A DNA stretch of 64,000 bases from Felixounavirus AN17P8, in sequence record OZ035742.1, one strand, 5' to 3'. This document shows positions 31,224-56,249 of this stretch, piece after piece. A program made the position numbers and the translations under genes. The notes beneath the pieces were generated by a model. It was not told the DNA's origin, did not search any database, and saw nothing but the letters and a program-made list of their open reading frames with translations. Position 1 is the first letter of the stretch. Each line of letters begins with the position of its first letter.

Positions 31224-31757
31224 TCAAGATAGTTTTGCAAACTCTCCGTGGAGTTTAATAGCAGCTTCACAGTAAGCTTTATGGGCTTCTTCTGGTGTGT
31301 CATGGTAACCTAAAAACATCTTCTTACCTTTATAACTTATCTGTGCGACCCACTTACCAGACTTCTTTTTAAGACTTACACCCTTGTACCCAGATTTATT
31401 GGTGACTGGTTTACCTTTATTCCAAGCACTTTGAAAATCATCTGCTTCCCTTAAGTTTACAATCCTGTTGTCAAGCGAGTCTCCGTTGATATGGTCAATG
31501 ATACCTTTTGGCATCTTGCCATACACGTAAAGCCATGCGAGTCTGTGTGCTTTATGTGCTTTCTTGTCAAAATAGATACTAATCTGTTTATGACCACTTG
31601 AATCAGTCTGGATATTACCTGCCACCTTTCCTGCATAATTACTGTTAAAAACACTAACAGCTCTTGATTTACCTTCTCTACGAAGCCAAGTAAAGACCCC
31701 TGTTTCGGGGTCATAGTGCAGCAGCTCCTTTAAACGTTTTTGTAAAATTAAATCCAT
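31224..31757 (-). CDS. HNH homing endonuclease with AP2-like DNA-binding domain
   Basis: 177 aa; IIDHINGDSLDNRIVNLREAD (HNH_3-type) and C-terminal YKGVS...GKWVAQISY...HGEFA; paralogous to 53909-54400. Confidence 0.6.
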   Translation of the reverse strand: MDLILQKRLKELLHYDPETGVFTWLRREGKSRAVSVFNSNYAGKVAGNIQTDSSGHKQISIYFDKKAHKAHRLAWLYVYGKMPKGIIDHINGDSLDNRIVNLREADDFQSAWNKGKPVTNKSGYKGVSLKKKSGKWVAQISYKGKKMFLGYHDTPEEAHKAYCEAAIKLHGEFAKLS

Positions 31758-40328: not shown

Positions 40329-41369
40329 ATGGAGAAGTACACATTAACAAAACTTCCCGATTCAGTTACACATGTTTTTATTGACTCTGACAGCATTGCC
40401 TATAAAGGTGCTTGTGTAGTTGAGAAAGCAAAATATAAATATGTCAATAAACTCACAGCAGAAGAATCTGATTCGTTTGATAATGCAAAAGATGCTGCAA
40501 GATGGTTAGCAGACCAGAGAATCCTTGTGGAAGAGCTTGGTCTGACATTTGATGAAGATGAATGGGAAAGACAGACTTGGAAAGAAGCTAAGAGTGAAAA
40601 AGAAGCTATCATGGCTACTCAACAGGTGCTTCAGGAATGGCTTAAGGTTGTTGGTAAAGAAAGAACTTGGGTAGGTTATTTAACAGAGAAAGGTGTGCAT
40701 AAACATAAAGACGTTAAAGGTCTTGAGCACCAATATCAAGGCAACCGTAAAGATGCTGTCACACCAACACACCTAGTTGCTTGTCGTGAGTATCTTCTGT
40801 CAAGACCAGAGTTCAAACTCTTAAAGGGTGGCTTCGAAGCTGATTCAATCGTAATTGCTAAAGCTGAAAAGATGGGTAAGAAAGCCGCTCTTATGAGTAT
40901 TGACAAAGACCTTCGACAAGCTGAAGGGACTTATTGTATTGATATGACTTATGAAAAATCACCACTAATTTTTATTGCTGACAATAATGTTGGTGATATC
41001 TGGGATTGTCCTATCAAATCAAAACCAAAAGCTGCAAAAACAGTTGGTGTAGGTTTTAAATTCTTGTGTTATCAGGCTGTTGCTGGAGATAATGCAGACA
41101 ACTACTTCGGCCTTAAGGGTGCTGGTAAAGTAGCTGTGATGAATGCTTTAGATGGTAAAGAGACCTATAAAGAGTGTCTTGACGCTATCTATGAACTCTA
41201 TGCTAAAAAAGACTCTTATACCTATGTGTCATGGGATGGACAGACTGTTACAAAGACACCGTTAGAGTTAATGGAACAGCATTTCTGGATAGCATATCAA
41301 GAGAGAAATCCAAAAGATAATTTCTCTTTCAAGAAATATAATTGGGAGCCGTGTATGAATGAAGATTAA
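40329..41369 (+). CDS. 5'-3' exonuclease / flap endonuclease (RNase H-like, putative)
   Basis: 346 aa; N-terminal VFIDSDSIAYKGA resembles the FEN/5'-3' exonuclease acidic motif; position in replication module. Confidence 0.45.
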   Translation: MEKYTLTKLPDSVTHVFIDSDSIAYKGACVVEKAKYKYVNKLTAEESDSFDNAKDAARWLADQRILVEELGLTFDEDEWERQTWKEAKSEKEAIMATQQVLQEWLKVVGKERTWVGYLTEKGVHKHKDVKGLEHQYQGNRKDAVTPTHLVACREYLLSRPEFKLLKGGFEADSIVIAKAEKMGKKAALMSIDKDLRQAEGTYCIDMTYEKSPLIFIADNNVGDIWDCPIKSKPKAAKTVGVGFKFLCYQAVAGDNADNYFGLKGAGKVAVMNALDGKETYKECLDAIYELYAKKDSYTYVSWDGQTVTKTPLELMEQHFWIAYQERNPKDNFSFKKYNWEPCMNED

Positions 41370-41856
41370 AGGATTTGGCAATTGTCCCACCTATGGTCAT
41401 TGGGTATCTTTATGTGGGGAAGTTGACCCCACTAAACATTTTGGCTTTGTCTATTTAGTACACTGTAAGAAGACTGGACAATATTATATCGGAAAGAAAC
41501 AGCTTAACAGTGTGACCAAAAGAAAAGTTGCTGGGAAGACTCGGAAGAAGGTAGTCACTAAGGAAAGTGATTGGATGACTTACGAGACTTCTTCTGAGTA
41601 TATTAAAAAAGATATTGAGAGCTTTGGAAAAGAATTTTTTGACTTTTACATTATCCAAACCTACTACACAAAAGGTGGCCTAGTTTATGGTGAAGCAAAC
41701 CTTCAACATAAGTTCGATGTAATGACAAAAAGGATTGACTCGAAGCTCAGACTCTTCTACAATGCCAATATTGCAGCAATTAAGTTTATTACTAAAGAAA
41801 CTTATGAAGATGCTGAAAAAAGAATCCATAAGGTAATGAAAGTAAATTGTGCTTGA
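41359..41856 (+). CDS. putative GIY-YIG domain nuclease
   Basis: 165 aa; FVYLVHCKKTGQYYIGKK has GIY-(10)-YIG-like spacing followed by Arg/Glu residues; weak. Confidence 0.3.
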   Translation: MKIKGFGNCPTYGHWVSLCGEVDPTKHFGFVYLVHCKKTGQYYIGKKQLNSVTKRKVAGKTRKKVVTKESDWMTYETSSEYIKKDIESFGKEFFDFYIIQTYYTKGGLVYGEANLQHKFDVMTKRIDSKLRLFYNANIAAIKFITKETYEDAEKRIHKVMKVNCA

Positions 41857-41862
41857 TAACTA

Positions 41863-42126
41863 TTGAGAGAGAATAAAATGTTTAACAAAAGTAAAGCTGT
41901 AAGTCATGTAGCAAAAGTTGACAGCAAGATTGAAGAACTTGAGCGCATTCTTGCAAATGCTAAAGAGTCAATCATTAAAGAAGTTGAAGCTGTTGAATCT
42001 CAAATGCAGCACCTGATGCTTAAACGTCAAGAGCTACGTGAGCACCTAGAATATATTGAAACACGAGAGCTAAAGGTTAACAAATATTTTAAGGAGTCCG
42101 AATGTTTAACTCAAGAGAATCAGTAA
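41863..42126 (+). CDS. small coiled-coil protein (hypothetical)
   Basis: 87 aa ORF. Confidence 0.3.
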   Translation: MRENKMFNKSKAVSHVAKVDSKIEELERILANAKESIIKEVEAVESQMQHLMLKRQELREHLEYIETRELKVNKYFKESECLTQENQ

Positions 42127-42857
42127 AAAACTGGAACCTTCGTTGTGGGAACACTCAAAAGCAACCTTACAGCAATGAGTATTGGGAATCTTTAAAATCT
42201 CAATCTCTGTGTATGCTTGAAGAAGCAAAAGAGCTTGTAAAAGCAATTGAAGAGAAAGACCCCATTGAGACACTGGATGCTCAGGCAGATTTGCAATATG
42301 TTCTTGACGGATTGATTTATCTGTCACAACATGACCATAACGGCGCTATGAAAGCTGTTTGCCATAATAATGACCTGAAGTACACAGATGACTATGAAGA
42401 AGCTTTAAAACGTCTTGCAGACATTGAAAAGCGTACTGGTCAAGAGTGTATTATCAGAATGTCAGTAGTTGATGGTAAAGAGTGGTATGCGATTGTTCGT
42501 GCAGCAGATGGGAAGATTATGAAGCAATCAAATATCCCTAAAGTACAGCTTGGTGAATACATTGTAGAACTTGAAAGCCAAGAACTTTTTGTGGTAGTAT
42601 CTGAGACATGCGTTATCTGCAAAGGTATTGTAGGTAGCTTAAAGGATTTGGGTGTAGATGGTTTTGTAGAAGTTAATCCAATTACCTCTAAAGCAGATAA
42701 AGACTTCTGTAAAGAGAATGGACTATGGATTGCAGATATTGTCTACTATGATGGTGAGCAGTTCCATGTAACCTCATACCCGAAACTGAATTATGATGCT
42801 AATAACCTGAAGTGCTGGTTAAAAGGGGTTGGTTATAATGGATTCACAGAACATTAA
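42102..42857 (+). CDS. hypothetical protein with possible MazG-like NTP pyrophosphohydrolase N-terminal domain
   Basis: 251 aa; helical, Glu/Asp-rich EEAKELVKAIEE...ETLDAQADLQYVLDGL resembles the MazG-type EExxE/D pattern; C-terminal 130 aa unassigned. Confidence 0.3.
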   Translation: MFNSRESVKNWNLRCGNTQKQPYSNEYWESLKSQSLCMLEEAKELVKAIEEKDPIETLDAQADLQYVLDGLIYLSQHDHNGAMKAVCHNNDLKYTDDYEEALKRLADIEKRTGQECIIRMSVVDGKEWYAIVRAADGKIMKQSNIPKVQLGEYIVELESQELFVVVSETCVICKGIVGSLKDLGVDGFVEVNPITSKADKDFCKENGLWIADIVYYDGEQFHVTSYPKLNYDANNLKCWLKGVGYNGFTEH

Positions 42858-52168: not shown

Positions 52169-52181
52169 ACAGATACTATAA

Positions 52182-52210
52182 GGGAACTGTAAAGGTTCCC
52201 TTTTTATTTT
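52182..52210 (+). terminator. rho-independent terminator
   Basis: hairpin gggaac-tgtaaag-gttccc followed by TTTTT. Confidence 0.6.
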
Positions 52211-52220
52211 TGGAGATAAA

Positions 52221-52736
52221 ATGTATCTGTCAAACCTGAAACGTTCGGCTGCAATGTCAGTTCTAAGACTCAGCTTTGAGGAACGTCAAGAGTTCATTGA
52301 CTCCCACCAATACGACCCTTCTAACTCGAATCACATGGTTCTTTGGAATCGTGATAACTTCCGTGAAAGAGCACTTGTCCGTTATTACCCACACTACACA
52401 ATAGATAACCTGTATGAATGGTGTGTTGTGAAGAACACTATTGCAACACTGAACAATCTTTGCAGGTATACAGGTAAGCAAGCATTTACATTAGGCCACC
52501 ACAAACCTGTTACAAAGGGTGGTGAGCATCACTGCGCAAACTGGTTTATCCAGACTAAACTTGATAACCAGAAGCAAGGGGATAACCTTCTAAGCACACC
52601 TAAGATGACCTATGAAGAGCAAGAGAAATATGTCAAAAATAATATGCCAGATGTGCTTGACAACAACTATACAGATTTGGCAATATCTCTCCTGTTGAAG
52701 TTCGAGACAGTTTATAGGGCAACTTACAATGGCTAA
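52221..52736 (+). CDS. hypothetical protein (possible HNH-type nuclease)
   Basis: 171 aa; GHHKPVTKGGEHHCANW...N..Q loosely resembles an HNH motif. Confidence 0.3.
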   Translation: MYLSNLKRSAAMSVLRLSFEERQEFIDSHQYDPSNSNHMVLWNRDNFRERALVRYYPHYTIDNLYEWCVVKNTIATLNNLCRYTGKQAFTLGHHKPVTKGGEHHCANWFIQTKLDNQKQGDNLLSTPKMTYEEQEKYVKNNMPDVLDNNYTDLAISLLLKFETVYRATYNG

Positions 52737-53007
52737 AGAGAAGTGGGAGATTTTACCATTAGTCAGTGAAGGCGGTAATGGTTGTGAAATGTACATGATA
52801 CGTGGTCATGTTCCAGAACCAATTGCACTTGAGATGGTAAACAACTTTACAGATGGCTCTTACAAAGACTTAGGGGAGCCAACTATAAAGCAGCAATGGG
52901 TAAAGCCTGTACCAGACAGCACAGGTAACTGTAGTGTACTTTATCACGTTGTAGACCCTGTAAAATGCAAATCTGCAATGGCAGTAACAAATGTAACTTT
53001 TGATTGA
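52729..53007 (+). CDS. hypothetical protein
   Basis: 92 aa ORF. Confidence 0.3.
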   Translation: MAKEKWEILPLVSEGGNGCEMYMIRGHVPEPIALEMVNNFTDGSYKDLGEPTIKQQWVKPVPDSTGNCSVLYHVVDPVKCKSAMAVTNVTFD

Positions 53008-53900
53008 GAGAGAAAACTATGAAAACATCTATCCGTGTTACAGTTCATTCACCAACTAAAGGGACTCATGAAGAAGAGTTTAACATCGTCCAATTTCCTT
53101 CTGGTGAGATTGGTGGACATTTTTCACCAGAGTTTGTTGACTTTACTGCTTATGCTGCATCATCCATCAACAACGTGATTATGATTGTAAAGGGTTATGA
53201 CAAAGACACATTATTTGCTGTGGCACTTGCTAAAGAGGCAATTGATGATTTAGTACCTCATAAGTTTGCTATGAAGACTGCTATCTTTTACTATTTGCCA
53301 AATGCACGTTACGACCGTCACATGTTTAAAGGTGATGCAGCAGCTTTGAAAGTGTTTGCACAACAGGTTAATGCAATGGGTTTTGATGCAGTCTGTGCAG
53401 TTGACCCTCACAGTTGCGTTCCAGATAACCTGTTTAACTGCTTCCAGAGTATTCCTCAAAAGGAGATTGCAGTTCACTATGCAAATGACCCTCTGATTGA
53501 TTACTTAGTAGCCCCAGATGCAGGTGCAGCTAAGAAGATTGCAGAGACTGCTAAAGAGGTGGATAAACCATATATCACAATGTCTAAAGTGCGTAACCTT
53601 AAGACTGGTGAGATTACGGGTATGCGAATCCTTGATGATGTTGATTTGACAGATAAAACCGTCATGATTCTGGATGATATCTGTGATGGTGGTCGAACCT
53701 TCGTAGAAGCAGCAAAACATCTTCGTGAAGCAGGTGCAAAACGTGTGGAACTTTATGTAACACATGGTATCTTCTCTAAAGATGTTGAAAACCTTCTTGA
53801 CAATGGTATTGACCATATCTACACTACAAACTCTTTAGGGGAAGCTAAAGACCGTGGATTAGCACATTATGCCCAAGTTACTGTAGCAAACCTTGATTAG
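53004..53900 (+). CDS. ribose-phosphate pyrophosphokinase-like (PRPP synthetase family; candidate ADP-ribose pyrophosphate synthetase)
   Basis: 298 aa; PRTase motif VMILDDICDGGRTFVEAAKHLREAGAKRVELYVTHGIFS aligns with E. coli Prs CVLVDDMIDTGGTL...GAKRVFAYATHPIFS. Confidence 0.75.
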   Translation: MREKTMKTSIRVTVHSPTKGTHEEEFNIVQFPSGEIGGHFSPEFVDFTAYAASSINNVIMIVKGYDKDTLFAVALAKEAIDDLVPHKFAMKTAIFYYLPNARYDRHMFKGDAAALKVFAQQVNAMGFDAVCAVDPHSCVPDNLFNCFQSIPQKEIAVHYANDPLIDYLVAPDAGAAKKIAETAKEVDKPYITMSKVRNLKTGEITGMRILDDVDLTDKTVMILDDICDGGRTFVEAAKHLREAGAKRVELYVTHGIFSKDVENLLDNGIDHIYTTNSLGEAKDRGLAHYAQVTVANLD

Positions 53901-53908
53901 GTAATAGT

Positions 53909-54400
53909 GTGAATAAGGGTTATTTTGAAAAATACCTAATATATGAACCAGATACAGGTTTATTAATTTGGAGAGTAACCCTTTGCAGTACCGCTATTGC
54001 TGGTAATGTGGCTGGCACAAGGTCTAAGAAGGGTTATATCCAAGTCCAGATAAATAAGAAGAGGTACTATGCACATAATATTGCATGGATTATGTCTGGA
54101 GGTGAGATACCAAGTGGATATGAGGTAGACCACATAGACCTTGATAAAGCTAATAATAAGTTGGAGAATTTAAGACTTAGCACAAAGTCACAAAATCAGA
54201 GAAATAGGGGTATACACAAGAATAATAAAACTGGTGTGAAGGGTGTAAGTTTTTGTAAACAAACAGGTCTTTACAAAGCAAGAGTCATGCTTTACTATAA
54301 AGAATACTTTTGTGGAAGATTTAAAACGGTAGAAGAAGCAAAAGAAGCTGTAATTAAAAAGCGAATAGAACTTCATGGTGAGTTTGCAAGACATAACTAA
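53909..54400 (+). CDS. HNH homing endonuclease with AP2-like domain
   Basis: 163 aa; YEVDHIDLDKANNKLENLRLSTKSQN and GVKGVSF...HGEFA; paralogous to 31224-31757; inserted between Prs-like and NAMPT-like genes. Confidence 0.6.
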   Translation: MNKGYFEKYLIYEPDTGLLIWRVTLCSTAIAGNVAGTRSKKGYIQVQINKKRYYAHNIAWIMSGGEIPSGYEVDHIDLDKANNKLENLRLSTKSQNQRNRGIHKNNKTGVKGVSFCKQTGLYKARVMLYYKEYFCGRFKTVEEAKEAVIKKRIELHGEFARHN

Positions 54401-54414
54401 GAGAGAGATAAAAT

Positions 54415-56196
54415 ATGAGTAAGTCACTTTACGCAGTACCAGCAGGTCTTAATGCAGATGCTTACAAGGCATCACATATATATCAGTATCCAGATGCTAC
54501 GCAATATCTTATGTTGAACCTAACACCACGTAGCGACAAATGGTTTAACAGTCCTTTAGCAATTGATGGTGTAGTGGCTTTTGGTATTCAACGTTTTGTT
54601 AAAGATTACTTGATAGACCACTGGAACGCCACTTTCTTTGAACGTGATAAAAAAGAAGCAATTGACGAAATCTTAGAAGTTATGAATGGTGTTCTGGGTA
54701 AAGATGCTATCGGTCGAGAGCATTGGGAAGCACTTCACGACTTAGGCTATCTACCAGTTGAAGTGTACGCTGTAGAAGAAGGTACAGTTGTTCCTATGCG
54801 TGTCCCAATGATTGTCTTCCAGAACACTGTTTCAGGTTTCCATTGGGTAGCAGGTTATCTGGAAGACGCTTTCTCTGCTGAGATTTGGAAGGCTTGCACC
54901 ATTGCAACTATTGCATTGCACTACAAACGTATCTGTAAGAAGTGGGCTGACCTCACTTGCGACAACGACTTGCATTTACCTTATCAGTGCCATGACTTTG
55001 CTATGCGTGGTATGTCCGGCTTTACTGATGACGCATTCAACGCTGTAGGACACTTAACCAGCTTTAAAGGGACTGATAGCTTCCCTGCTGTATACACGGC
55101 TAAACGTATCTATGGGCAGACCTATCCAATCTCTGATATTGGAAGCTCTGTACCAGCCACTGAACACTCTGTAATGTGTGCAAACATTGCTTGGGAAGGT
55201 GGTAACGAGTTGGTTGAAGAAGAAAGACGATTTAAAGGTGAGTTGCAAACCTTCCGTCGTTTCTTAACAGAAACTTACCCAACTGGTATTGCAAGTATTG
55301 TTTCAGATACTTATAACTTCTGGAGAACTGTGTCAGAAATCTTACCAGCACTTCGTAAAGAAATTATGGAACGTGACGGTAAGCTGGTAATTCGCCCTGA
55401 CTCTGGAGACCCTGTACACATTGTCACAGGTTATAAAGCAATCCACTTAGAGTGTGCTAAGAAGGCTTATTATGAGCACCTAAGCAAGCTGGAAGCTAGT
55501 GACACAATGTTGAATGCTGTTCTGAACATGAAGCTTGAAAACATCAACTATGGTATTGCTGGATGGCTACTGTCAGAAGGCTACGAAATGGTTGTTGACA
55601 GAGAAGACTTTGAAGTTGCTGATACAGTGATGTTGAAAAATGCTTATATGGTCGGTTCTGCAAACGTTGTAACACGTCCTGTAGCTGAAATTGATGGAGC
55701 TATTAAGACACTGTACAACATCTTTGGGGGAACTATTAACTCTAAAGGGTTTAAGGTACTGGATGAACATATCGGCCTTATCTATGGTGACTCTATCACG
55801 CTGGAACGTGCAAACGAAATCCTGAAGCGTCTGTATGAAATGGGTTTTGCAAGCTCTAACGTAGTGTTTGGTGTAGGCTCTTACACTTACCAGTACATGA
55901 CTCGTGACACCTTTGCATTTGCTGTCAAAGCAACTCTTGCAAGCATTGGTGGTAAAGAGATTATGCTTGCAAAAGACCCTAAAACAGATAGTGGTGTTAA
56001 GAAGTCTGCCTTTGGTGGTGTAGCACCTATGTGGGACGGTGATAAGCTGAAAGCTGTAGATGGATATGGATTCCAGAGTTTTGCAGATGTACTTGACCAC
56101 CCAGCCTGTGCTTTACGTTTAGTCTTTAGTGACTCTGAGCAGTTCGGTTACACGACTCTTGGTGATATTCGAAATAATATTGACAAGCAGCTTTAA
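54415..56196 (+). CDS. nicotinamide phosphoribosyltransferase-like (NAMPT family; candidate nicotinamide ADP-ribose transferase)
   Basis: 593 aa; DAYKASHIYQYP, HDFAMRGMSG, SFKGTDS, VSDTYN, IRPDSGDP, IYGDSI align with conserved NAMPT motifs (DSYKVTHYKQYP, HDFGYRG, NFKGTDT, VSDSYD, IRPDSGNP, IQGDGV). Confidence 0.8.
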   Translation: MSKSLYAVPAGLNADAYKASHIYQYPDATQYLMLNLTPRSDKWFNSPLAIDGVVAFGIQRFVKDYLIDHWNATFFERDKKEAIDEILEVMNGVLGKDAIGREHWEALHDLGYLPVEVYAVEEGTVVPMRVPMIVFQNTVSGFHWVAGYLEDAFSAEIWKACTIATIALHYKRICKKWADLTCDNDLHLPYQCHDFAMRGMSGFTDDAFNAVGHLTSFKGTDSFPAVYTAKRIYGQTYPISDIGSSVPATEHSVMCANIAWEGGNELVEEERRFKGELQTFRRFLTETYPTGIASIVSDTYNFWRTVSEILPALRKEIMERDGKLVIRPDSGDPVHIVTGYKAIHLECAKKAYYEHLSKLEASDTMLNAVLNMKLENINYGIAGWLLSEGYEMVVDREDFEVADTVMLKNAYMVGSANVVTRPVAEIDGAIKTLYNIFGGTINSKGFKVLDEHIGLIYGDSITLERANEILKRLYEMGFASSNVVFGVGSYTYQYMTRDTFAFAVKATLASIGGKEIMLAKDPKTDSGVKKSAFGGVAPMWDGDKLKAVDGYGFQSFADVLDHPACALRLVFSDSEQFGYTTLGDIRNNIDKQL

Positions 56197-56210
56197 AAGT
56201 ATATGATAAG

Positions 56211-56233
56211 AGGCTCCTACGGGAGCCTTTTTA
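56211..56233 (+). terminator. rho-independent terminator
   Basis: hairpin aggctcc-tacg-ggagcct followed by TTTTT. Confidence 0.6.
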
Positions 56234-56249
56234 ATTTCTGGAGAAAGAC

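Follow-up and report, generated by a model that had tools for sequence, protein, structure and literature searches.

The stretch of DNA considered here, called the window, is the whole 64,000 nucleotides (nt) analysed from Felixounavirus AN17P8 (sequence record OZ035742.1), and the locus of interest within it is a group of three genes, two of which very probably encode Adps and Namat, the enzymes of the nicotinamide adenine dinucleotide (NAD+) reconstitution pathway 1 (NARP1). Three open reading frames (ORFs) were confirmed on the + strand at 53004-56196, encoding a Prs-like protein, a protein of 163 amino acids (aa) and a NAMPT-like protein of 593 aa. The first gene, adps (53019-53900, +), encodes a Prs-family protein of 293 aa which shows 80% identity to gp79 of phage Bas63 and falls in phrog_619. 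A preliminary description of this DNA, made from the sequence alone, had let this ORF begin at 53004 (TTG, 298 aa). However, that TTG overlaps the stop codon of the preceding gene, and the true start is the ATG at 53019, in agreement with the annotation of phages Bas63 and Si3; the Shine-Dalgarno sequence GAGAGAG, read directly at 53006-53012 (+), is placed 6 nt ahead of it. The last gene, namat (54415-56196, +), encodes the NAMPT-family protein, recognised by 98% identity to Bas63 gp80 and by PDB and fold matches, and it is preceded by a Shine-Dalgarno sequence of its own, GAGAGAGA (54401-54408, +; direct reading). It starts 514 bp downstream of adps on the same strand and, as had been described, a putative homing endonuclease gene alone separates the pair: one ORF of 163 aa with HNH_3 and AP2 domains and a GTG start (53909-54400, +; Pfam and PHROGs). 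The gaps between the three genes are 8 nt and 14 nt.

An intrinsic terminator is found 12 nt past the namat stop codon (56208-56236, +), consisting of a 10-bp stem and a T-run (GGCTCC-TACG-GGAGCC, then TTTTT) with a folding energy (dG) of -16.6 kcal/mol and a z of -3.3. The claim that the pair lies in one unit ending at a terminator at 56211 is therefore correct. A second intrinsic terminator, with a 9-bp stem (AAGGGAAC...GTTCCCTT) followed by a T-run, is located upstream at 52180-52210 (+). As these two terminators flank the region, adps, the HNH gene and namat form, together with two small upstream ORFs, one terminator-bounded block. No convincing terminator was found inside the unit, where two weak hairpin matches lack a proper T-run and their number equals that expected from shuffled sequence. 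Moreover, adps and namat are in the same syntenic slot as in Bas63, between NrdG and rIIA.

The motifs for which the last ORF had been called a NAMPT-family gene (HDFAMRG, SFKGTDS and IRPDSGDP) are all present, HDFAMRG at aa 193-199, FKGTDS at aa 217-222 and IRPDSGDP at aa 326-333, and the protein matches the Pfam families NAPRTase (E 3e-35) and NAMPT_N as well as phrog_448 (E 1e-201). It is identical to Bas63 gp80, which is among the top protein-search matches, at 580 of 593 positions (98%) with equal length, and the codon changes between the two genes comprise 62 synonymous and 13 non-synonymous ones. The closest PDB sequence is Namat of SPbetaL1, known from the crystal structures 9W5W and 9W5X (PMC12774641), with 434 bits, compared with 170-180 bits for bacterial Nampts and about 142 for mammalian/human NAMPT. 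An AlphaFold2 model of the window protein reached a predicted local distance difference test score (pLDDT) of 93.2 and a predicted template-modelling score (pTM) of 0.91. The fold closest to this model is again 9W5X (target-normalised template-modelling score (TM) 0.95, E 6.5e-54), followed by NadV of H. ducreyi and mammalian NAMPT.

Namat and Nampt are set apart by a selectivity-clamp helix (SCH) and a clamp loop (SCL) (PMC12774641). The SCH has the signature GS-X-phi-X-phi-X-phi-TRD, in which X is aromatic, and the SCL supplies the residue that stacks on adenine: its third residue is Arg, Lys or Tyr and, where this is Lys or Tyr, the stacking is done by the next residue (PMC12774641). Alignment with canonical and with ADP-ribose (ADPR)-specific homologues, a check already proposed in the preliminary description, revealed both elements of the Namat type in the window protein. 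The SCH is GSYTYQYMTRD (aa 488-498; 55876-55908, +), which fits the published motif and has Met at phi3, as in Bas63, where Asn or Val is commoner. The SCL is S40-D41-K42-W43 (54532-54543, +), with Lys in third place followed by an aromatic residue, and is identical to that of Bas63; W43, the aromatic residue after K42, would be the one stacking on adenine. In the alignment, His251 (55165-55167, +) takes the place of the histidine that is catalytic, and becomes phosphorylated, in NAMPT and Namat. In addition, the core residues D15, Y17, F195, R198, D221, A248, H251, R327, D329 and G458-D459 are all present and are invariant in an alignment of 46 sequences; their counterparts in SPbetaL1 are D13, Y15, F189, R192, D215, A242, the catalytic His, R306, D308 and G360-D361.

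The first gene had been assigned to the Prs family on a phosphoribosyltransferase (PRTase) motif, and rightly so. The loop VMILDDICDGGRTF, of the type found in enzymes of phosphoribosyl pyrophosphate (PRPP), is encoded at 53661-53702 and the flexible loop KVRNLKTGE at 53586-53612, and the protein matches Pfam Pribosyltran (E 3e-11) and Pribosyl_synth (E 3e-10) and phrog_619 (E 1e-97). With Bas63 gp79 it shares 233 of 293 residues and the same length. It lies below every Prs equivalog cut-off of NCBIfam, the best being NF002095 with 105 bits against the 296 required, and clears the broad subfamily TIGR01251 alone (125 against 113 bits). Identity to E. coli Prs is 26% in a MAFFT alignment and 30% over 195 aa in a local BLASTP match. 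The loop motif K.R[ND]..TGE is present in the Adps proteins of the window, Bas63 and FADO; in the alignment Aeromonas phage Assk has a close variant and E. coli Prs lacks it, and a regular-expression check of five sequences found it in the same three Adps proteins and in neither E. coli Prs nor a Prs-like protein of Klebsiella. Leaving this loop motif aside, the identity to Bas63 gp79, the phrog_619 match and the distance from Prs suggest that the window protein belongs to the phage Adps clade, distinct from housekeeping Prs. In PADLOC, Adps gave generic echoes of PRTase domains (ShosT, PsyrT) only and Namat gave no match.

The earlier remark that the window has no nicotinamide mononucleotide (NMN) adenylyltransferase (Nmnat) also holds. 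The motifs GxFxPxHxGH and ISSTxxR and the Nudix box are all missing from the reading frames of at least 60 aa in the window. When NadR and NadD of E. coli and the Nmnat of a T5-like phage served as tblastn queries, no match in the window or in the full genomes of Si3 and Bas63 was better than E 1.3, with a positive control at E 2e-57. Neither of these two complete genome records has an annotated NMN adenylyltransferase.

Orthology, motifs, fold, synteny and the absence of an NMNAT support the identity of this locus as the Felixounavirus copy of NARP1, a reading to which a probability of roughly 93% can be given. The preliminary description had proposed a two-enzyme route that rebuilds NAD+ through ADPR-pyrophosphate (ADPR-PP), and NARP1 is precisely that route. 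It was discovered in BASEL phage Bas63, genes 79-80 (bas63_0079 and bas63_0080; Osterman et al., bioRxiv 10.1101/2024.02.11.579819), and the record of this phage (JohannRWettstein, MZ501086) is that of a Felixounavirus. Deletion of genes 79-80 left Bas63 with about 20-fold fewer plaques on SIR2-HerA hosts, and NAD+ dropped further during infection with the deletion mutant (10.1101/2024.02.11.579819). By analogy, the allele pair of the window probably acts like the Bas63 pair. A Namat homologue is found close to 97% of the Adps-clade genes, and no phage encoding both NARP1 and NARP2 was found in the NARP1 paper. NARP1 is thus already known for the same lineage, and there is nothing new in the locus.

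According to the proposed mechanism, a defence system that depletes NAD+ (SIR2-HerA, Thoeris, DSR1/2, SEFIR or similar) would split NAD+ into ADP-ribose and nicotinamide during infection. Adps (53019-53900) would then move pyrophosphate from ATP onto ADP-ribose, yielding ADPR-PP, and Namat (54415-56196) would couple ADPR-PP with nicotinamide to give NAD+ directly, with no NMN intermediate and no need for an NMN adenylyltransferase. In doing so Namat is expected to use the NAMPT catalytic core together with an adenine-stacking clamp made of the K42/W43 loop and of Y490 and Y494 in GSYTYQYMTRD. Both genes are presumably read from the one terminator-bounded unit, each with its own GAGAGAG ribosome-binding site, and the HNH_3+AP2 gene would have inserted itself into the spacer between them while leaving both reading frames intact.

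The alternative that survives best is classical salvage, in which PRPP is produced by the Prs-like enzyme and turned into NMN by the NAMPT-like one, after which the NadR or PncC route of the host completes NAD+. This is how the deposited records have it, as all of the approximately 258 related GenBank records label the pair ribose-phosphate pyrophosphokinase and nicotinamide phosphoribosyltransferase. Moreover, with 470 bits the NAMPT-like protein exceeds the cut-off of 405 of the NCBIfam equivalog NF006629, and Namat keeps in vitro about half of the PRPP-to-NMN activity of human Nampt when ADPR-PP is not supplied. Nevertheless, the counter-defence of Bas63 survives deletion of both pncC and nadR in the host, and infected cells contain ADPR-PP only if they have the operon as well as the defence system (10.1101/2024.02.11.579819). 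SPbetaL1 Adps yields no PRPP-type product, the window Adps falls under all the Prs equivalog cut-offs and the window Namat bears the clamp signature, all of which makes classical salvage quite improbable here.

Some points weigh against NARP1 nonetheless. The Adps of Bas63 did not purify, and the enzymology used SPbetaL1 and no Felixounavirus Adps (10.1101/2024.02.11.579819); the in vitro work covers the homologues of SPbetaL1, DyoEdafos and P. foliorum only, and for Bas63 there are in vivo metabolites only. By BLAST the window Adps scores 69 bits with FADO Adps and 65.5 bits with E. coli Prs, which at such distance is equal, and because pairwise BLAST does not separate these two, membership in the Adps clade rests on the identity to Bas63 Adps. 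The N-terminal part of about 180 aa of the window Adps is itself divergent from Bas63, with 57-80% identity depending on the block. About 22 kb of the phage's own genome lies outside the window. Finally, the HNH insertion might change the stoichiometry or the timing of Namat expression.

That insertion could also be taken further, as a sign that the operon is impaired, namat being uncoupled or silenced and the pair a decaying NARP1 remnant. A foreign gene of 492 bp with a weak GTG start does split the pair, and Bas63, the phage that was tested, has no HNH gene but a 45-bp spacer between adps and namat. However, both flanking ORFs are of full length with their reading frames intact, each with its own GAGAGAG site and with the short gaps given above, and 61 of the approximately 258 related records have the gene at this very site in an identical arrangement, the other relatives, including Bas63, being without the gene. 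Nearly all the changes in Namat relative to Bas63 are synonymous, and the unit is free of any convincing terminator, so that decay is still less probable than classical salvage.

Published operons do hold accessory genes between or beside adps and namat, since some carry a Macro-domain ADPR-1P phosphatase (Adpp; NARP1-AP) or an RyR-domain glycosidase (RyDEP) according to recent preprints, but the idea that the middle gene is such an accessory enzyme feeding ADPR is effectively refuted by its domain assignment: the protein is a full-length HNH_3 plus AP2 protein (Pfam HNH_3 E 3.7e-19 across the full domain, AP2 weak at E 5e-4; phrog_99 E 2e-67) that falls in homing-endonuclease families of both PHROGs and PADLOC, matches neither Macro nor RyR domains, has a paralogue of 37% identity elsewhere in the window and is present or absent among otherwise near-identical phages. 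The HNH_3+AP2 gene is best read, from its sequence, as a selfish homing endonuclease and not as an enzyme of the pathway. The paralogue (31233-31721, -; E 8e-27) is placed in a part of the window that corresponds by synteny to the region from DNA ligase to DNA polymerase of Si3 and Bas63, where these two phages also have a homing endonuclease gene (gp073 and bas63_0046, respectively).

Set against known systems, the NARP1 of the window is closest to that of Bas63, with which it shares the genus, the slot, the lengths (593 and 293 aa), both Namat insertions described below, and the clamp and catalytic residues; no NMNAT was found in the window or in the Bas63 genome. It differs in the HNH_3+AP2 gene of the spacer and in the N-terminal 180 aa or so of Adps, which are of a different, older and commoner allele class, and Bas63 has an extra gene, 0081, after the terminator, which the window lacks. 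The NARP1 of SPbetaL1 and FADO follows the same two-gene logic, with the Namat core, an SCH of GSFTYQYNTRD compared with GSYTYQYMTRD in the window, and a fold similarity of TM 0.95. However, the identity of the Namat proteins is only about 38-46%, those of SPbetaL1 and FADO are of a short form (491-498 aa) without the domain at aa 340-427 and the insertion at aa 259-273, and their SCL uses Arg40 directly whereas that of the window has Lys and then an aromatic residue. The Adps of FADO is about 30% identical to that of the window. NARP2 of Vibrio phage KVP40 (NadV with the bifunctional Nmnat NatV) likewise employs an enzyme of the NAMPT family and counters the same defences by restoring NAD+, but it needs PRPP and Nmnat and has no Adps, whereas the window has Adps and no Nmnat homologue. 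Housekeeping Prs and Nampt/NadV (E. coli; human, Xanthomonas and H. ducreyi) share with the window proteins the superfamilies, the folds, the PRPP-type loop, the catalytic His and the ribose-binding Arg and Asp; they differ in that the window Adps lies under the Prs thresholds and the window Namat has aromatic clamp residues, of which NAMPT has none. Unlike the NARP1-AP and RyDEP operons, the unit of the window holds HNH_3+AP2 and no Macro or RyR gene.

The 2024 publication of NARP1 concerned a phage of this genus, and the structure and the specificity determinants of Namat followed early in 2026. The main value of the present locus is one of annotation, as the names in all of the approximately 258 related records imply a chemistry that published work has since overturned. 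A search of the literature that combined Felixounavirus with NARP1 returned no paper. Phage therapy and biocontrol make use of Felixounaviruses, and knowing that they carry an NAD+-reconstitution counter-defence helps to predict their host range where the bacteria have SIR2, Thoeris or DSR systems.

The sole unexplained element of the locus, and a modest question, is the role of the insert domain in the long-form Namat. The preliminary description had noted that the protein is about 100 aa longer than canonical NAMPT, which is right as to length (593 aa compared with about 491 aa; the crystallised SPbetaL1 Namat has 491 aa and FADO Namat 498 aa), and had connected this with an altered substrate pocket, for which there is no support. 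The validated Namats of SPbetaL1 and FADO lack both insertions, the SCL and SCH positions fall outside them, and the Namat-type SCH motif occurs in 46/46 homologues of the alignment, whether of the long or the short form. Specificity for ADPR-PP can therefore not be read from the length. Relative to the short-form Namat and NAMPT, the minor insertion covers aa 259-273 (55189-55233, +) and varies in length among the long-form phage homologues. The major one, aa 340-427 (55432-55695, +), forms a small autonomous alpha/beta domain and makes up the bulk of the extra residues. This domain is predicted with a pLDDT of 93-96 in the full model and of 91.5, with a pTM of 0.81, when modelled alone, and DSSP assigns to the predicted model about four strands and five helices. 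No convincing relative was found in BFVD by structure or in Pfam by sequence, and the text of the NAR structural paper neither contains the word insertion nor mentions the insert domain. Long-form Namats bearing the insert occur in Ounavirinae-like phages and in several other phage lineages of Gram-negative hosts. As the insert begins about 10 residues past the strand with the ribose-binding R327 and D329, it may lie near the pocket. Candidate roles may be allosteric regulation, docking of Adps so that ADPR-PP, which is labile, is channelled, or protection against an inhibitor from the host. It is a speculative and rather doubtful proposal, though one not without some chance, that the insert adds a function beyond those of the short-form enzymes and that, separately, the HNH gene of the spacer drives shuffling of the adps alleles.

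As to these alleles, the DNA identity to Bas63 is 97-100% up to the adps start codon, falls to 58-67% across the first 350 nt or so of the gene (53019-53370) and climbs again towards its 3' end. The first 100 nt or so of namat (54415-54520) are also divergent, with 73-77% identity. The divergent part of adps is rich in changes of both kinds, synonymous and non-synonymous, and this suggests that recombination brought in an old allele. Adps aa 181-240, by comparison, show 100% protein identity to Bas63 despite 16 synonymous changes, the pattern expected of a catalytic half under strong purifying selection. The adps allele class of the window is the commoner one, with 154 records at least 90% identical, and the Bas63 type is in the minority, so that, as judged from the records, two adps allele classes appear to circulate among Felixounaviruses. 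HNH-driven gene conversion between co-infecting Felixounaviruses would account for a mosaic that breaks so abruptly at the adps start codon.

The region as a whole has 97% DNA identity to Salmonella phage Si3 and matches 258 records, nearly all of them Felix O1-like phages of Escherichia, Salmonella, Shigella and Citrobacter hosts. The neighbourhood is typical of Felixounavirus, with NrdG, rIIA, many homing endonucleases and a GC content of 39%. The two small ORFs upstream of adps (52221-53007, +), of 171 aa (phrog_3500) and 92 aa (phrog_4726), correspond to Bas63 genes 77-78. They are given as context only, and their membership in NARP1 is not claimed. The 171-aa ORF (52221-52736, +), conserved as Bas63 gene 77, contains an HNH-like motif (GHHKPVTKGGEHHCANW...N) and a weak match to phrog_2214, and no link to NAD metabolism was found for it. 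Neither upstream ORF has a significant Pfam match even at E<=5, and no Macro or RyR match was obtained in Pfam at this threshold for these two or for the downstream ORF.

The strongest sigma-70-like match of the region (TTGACA-16-TATGAT, 11/12; 56180-56207, +) overlaps the final codons of namat and stops one base short of the terminator hairpin; it may serve the next gene (56250) as a promoter or have arisen by chance. Past the namat terminator, and ahead of the following gene common to both phages, Bas63 has an extra gene of 345 nt, bas63_0081, which is absent from the window (at about 56245) and from Si3, and this points to an indel hotspot directly after the NARP1 unit.

A chromosomal, non-prophage pair of Prs-like and NAMPT-like genes was found in Klebsiella michiganensis (GCA_023685665.1, 2211-5491 of the segment from that genome). 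A gene encoding an NrtR-type regulator (Nudix and WHD_NrtR) is divergent from the Prs-like gene, downstream of which comes a NAMPT-like gene of the short form (496 aa). The Prs-like protein of 289 aa is 48% identical to the window Adps and scores 164 bits with it, compared with 89 bits to E. coli Prs. Close homologues of the NAMPT-like protein (three aligned) carry the Namat SCH motif, and 496-aa NAMPT-like proteins are likewise present in Cronobacter, Kosakonia and Phytobacter. NrtR responds to ADP-ribose, and the Klebsiella locus has the look of a NARP1-like pair in a bacterium, controlled by a regulator that senses ADP-ribose. In the T4-like Aeromonas phage Assk (17410-21512 of the segment from that phage) five small ORFs stand between the Prs-like gene, whose product of 265 aa is 36% identical to the window Adps, and the NAMPT-like gene. 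This phage was considered as a source of a NARP2 Nmnat and rejected, as it has its own Prs-like/NAMPT-like pair and no Nmnat nearby.

Another candidate, considered as a hidden NAD enzyme or NMNAT and set aside, is gp061 of Si3, annotated in RefSeq as NAD synthetase through phrog_447. Its syntenic counterpart in the window (41359-41856, +; 165 aa) has an N-terminus of ...PTYGH, in which TYGH resembles a nucleotidyltransferase motif, but it is a SegE-type GIY-YIG endonuclease-like domain (PF19835, E 9.5e-28) and has no NCBIfam match. The name NAD synthetase for phrog_447 appears to be a propagated mis-annotation which could mislead the reconstruction of NAD pathways. Two genes downstream of this ORF, with an 87-aa ORF (41863-42126) between them, lies a further nucleotide-pool gene (42102-42857, +), which encodes a MazG-like nucleotide pyrophosphohydrolase (phrog_2144, E 8e-102; Pfam PRA-PH).

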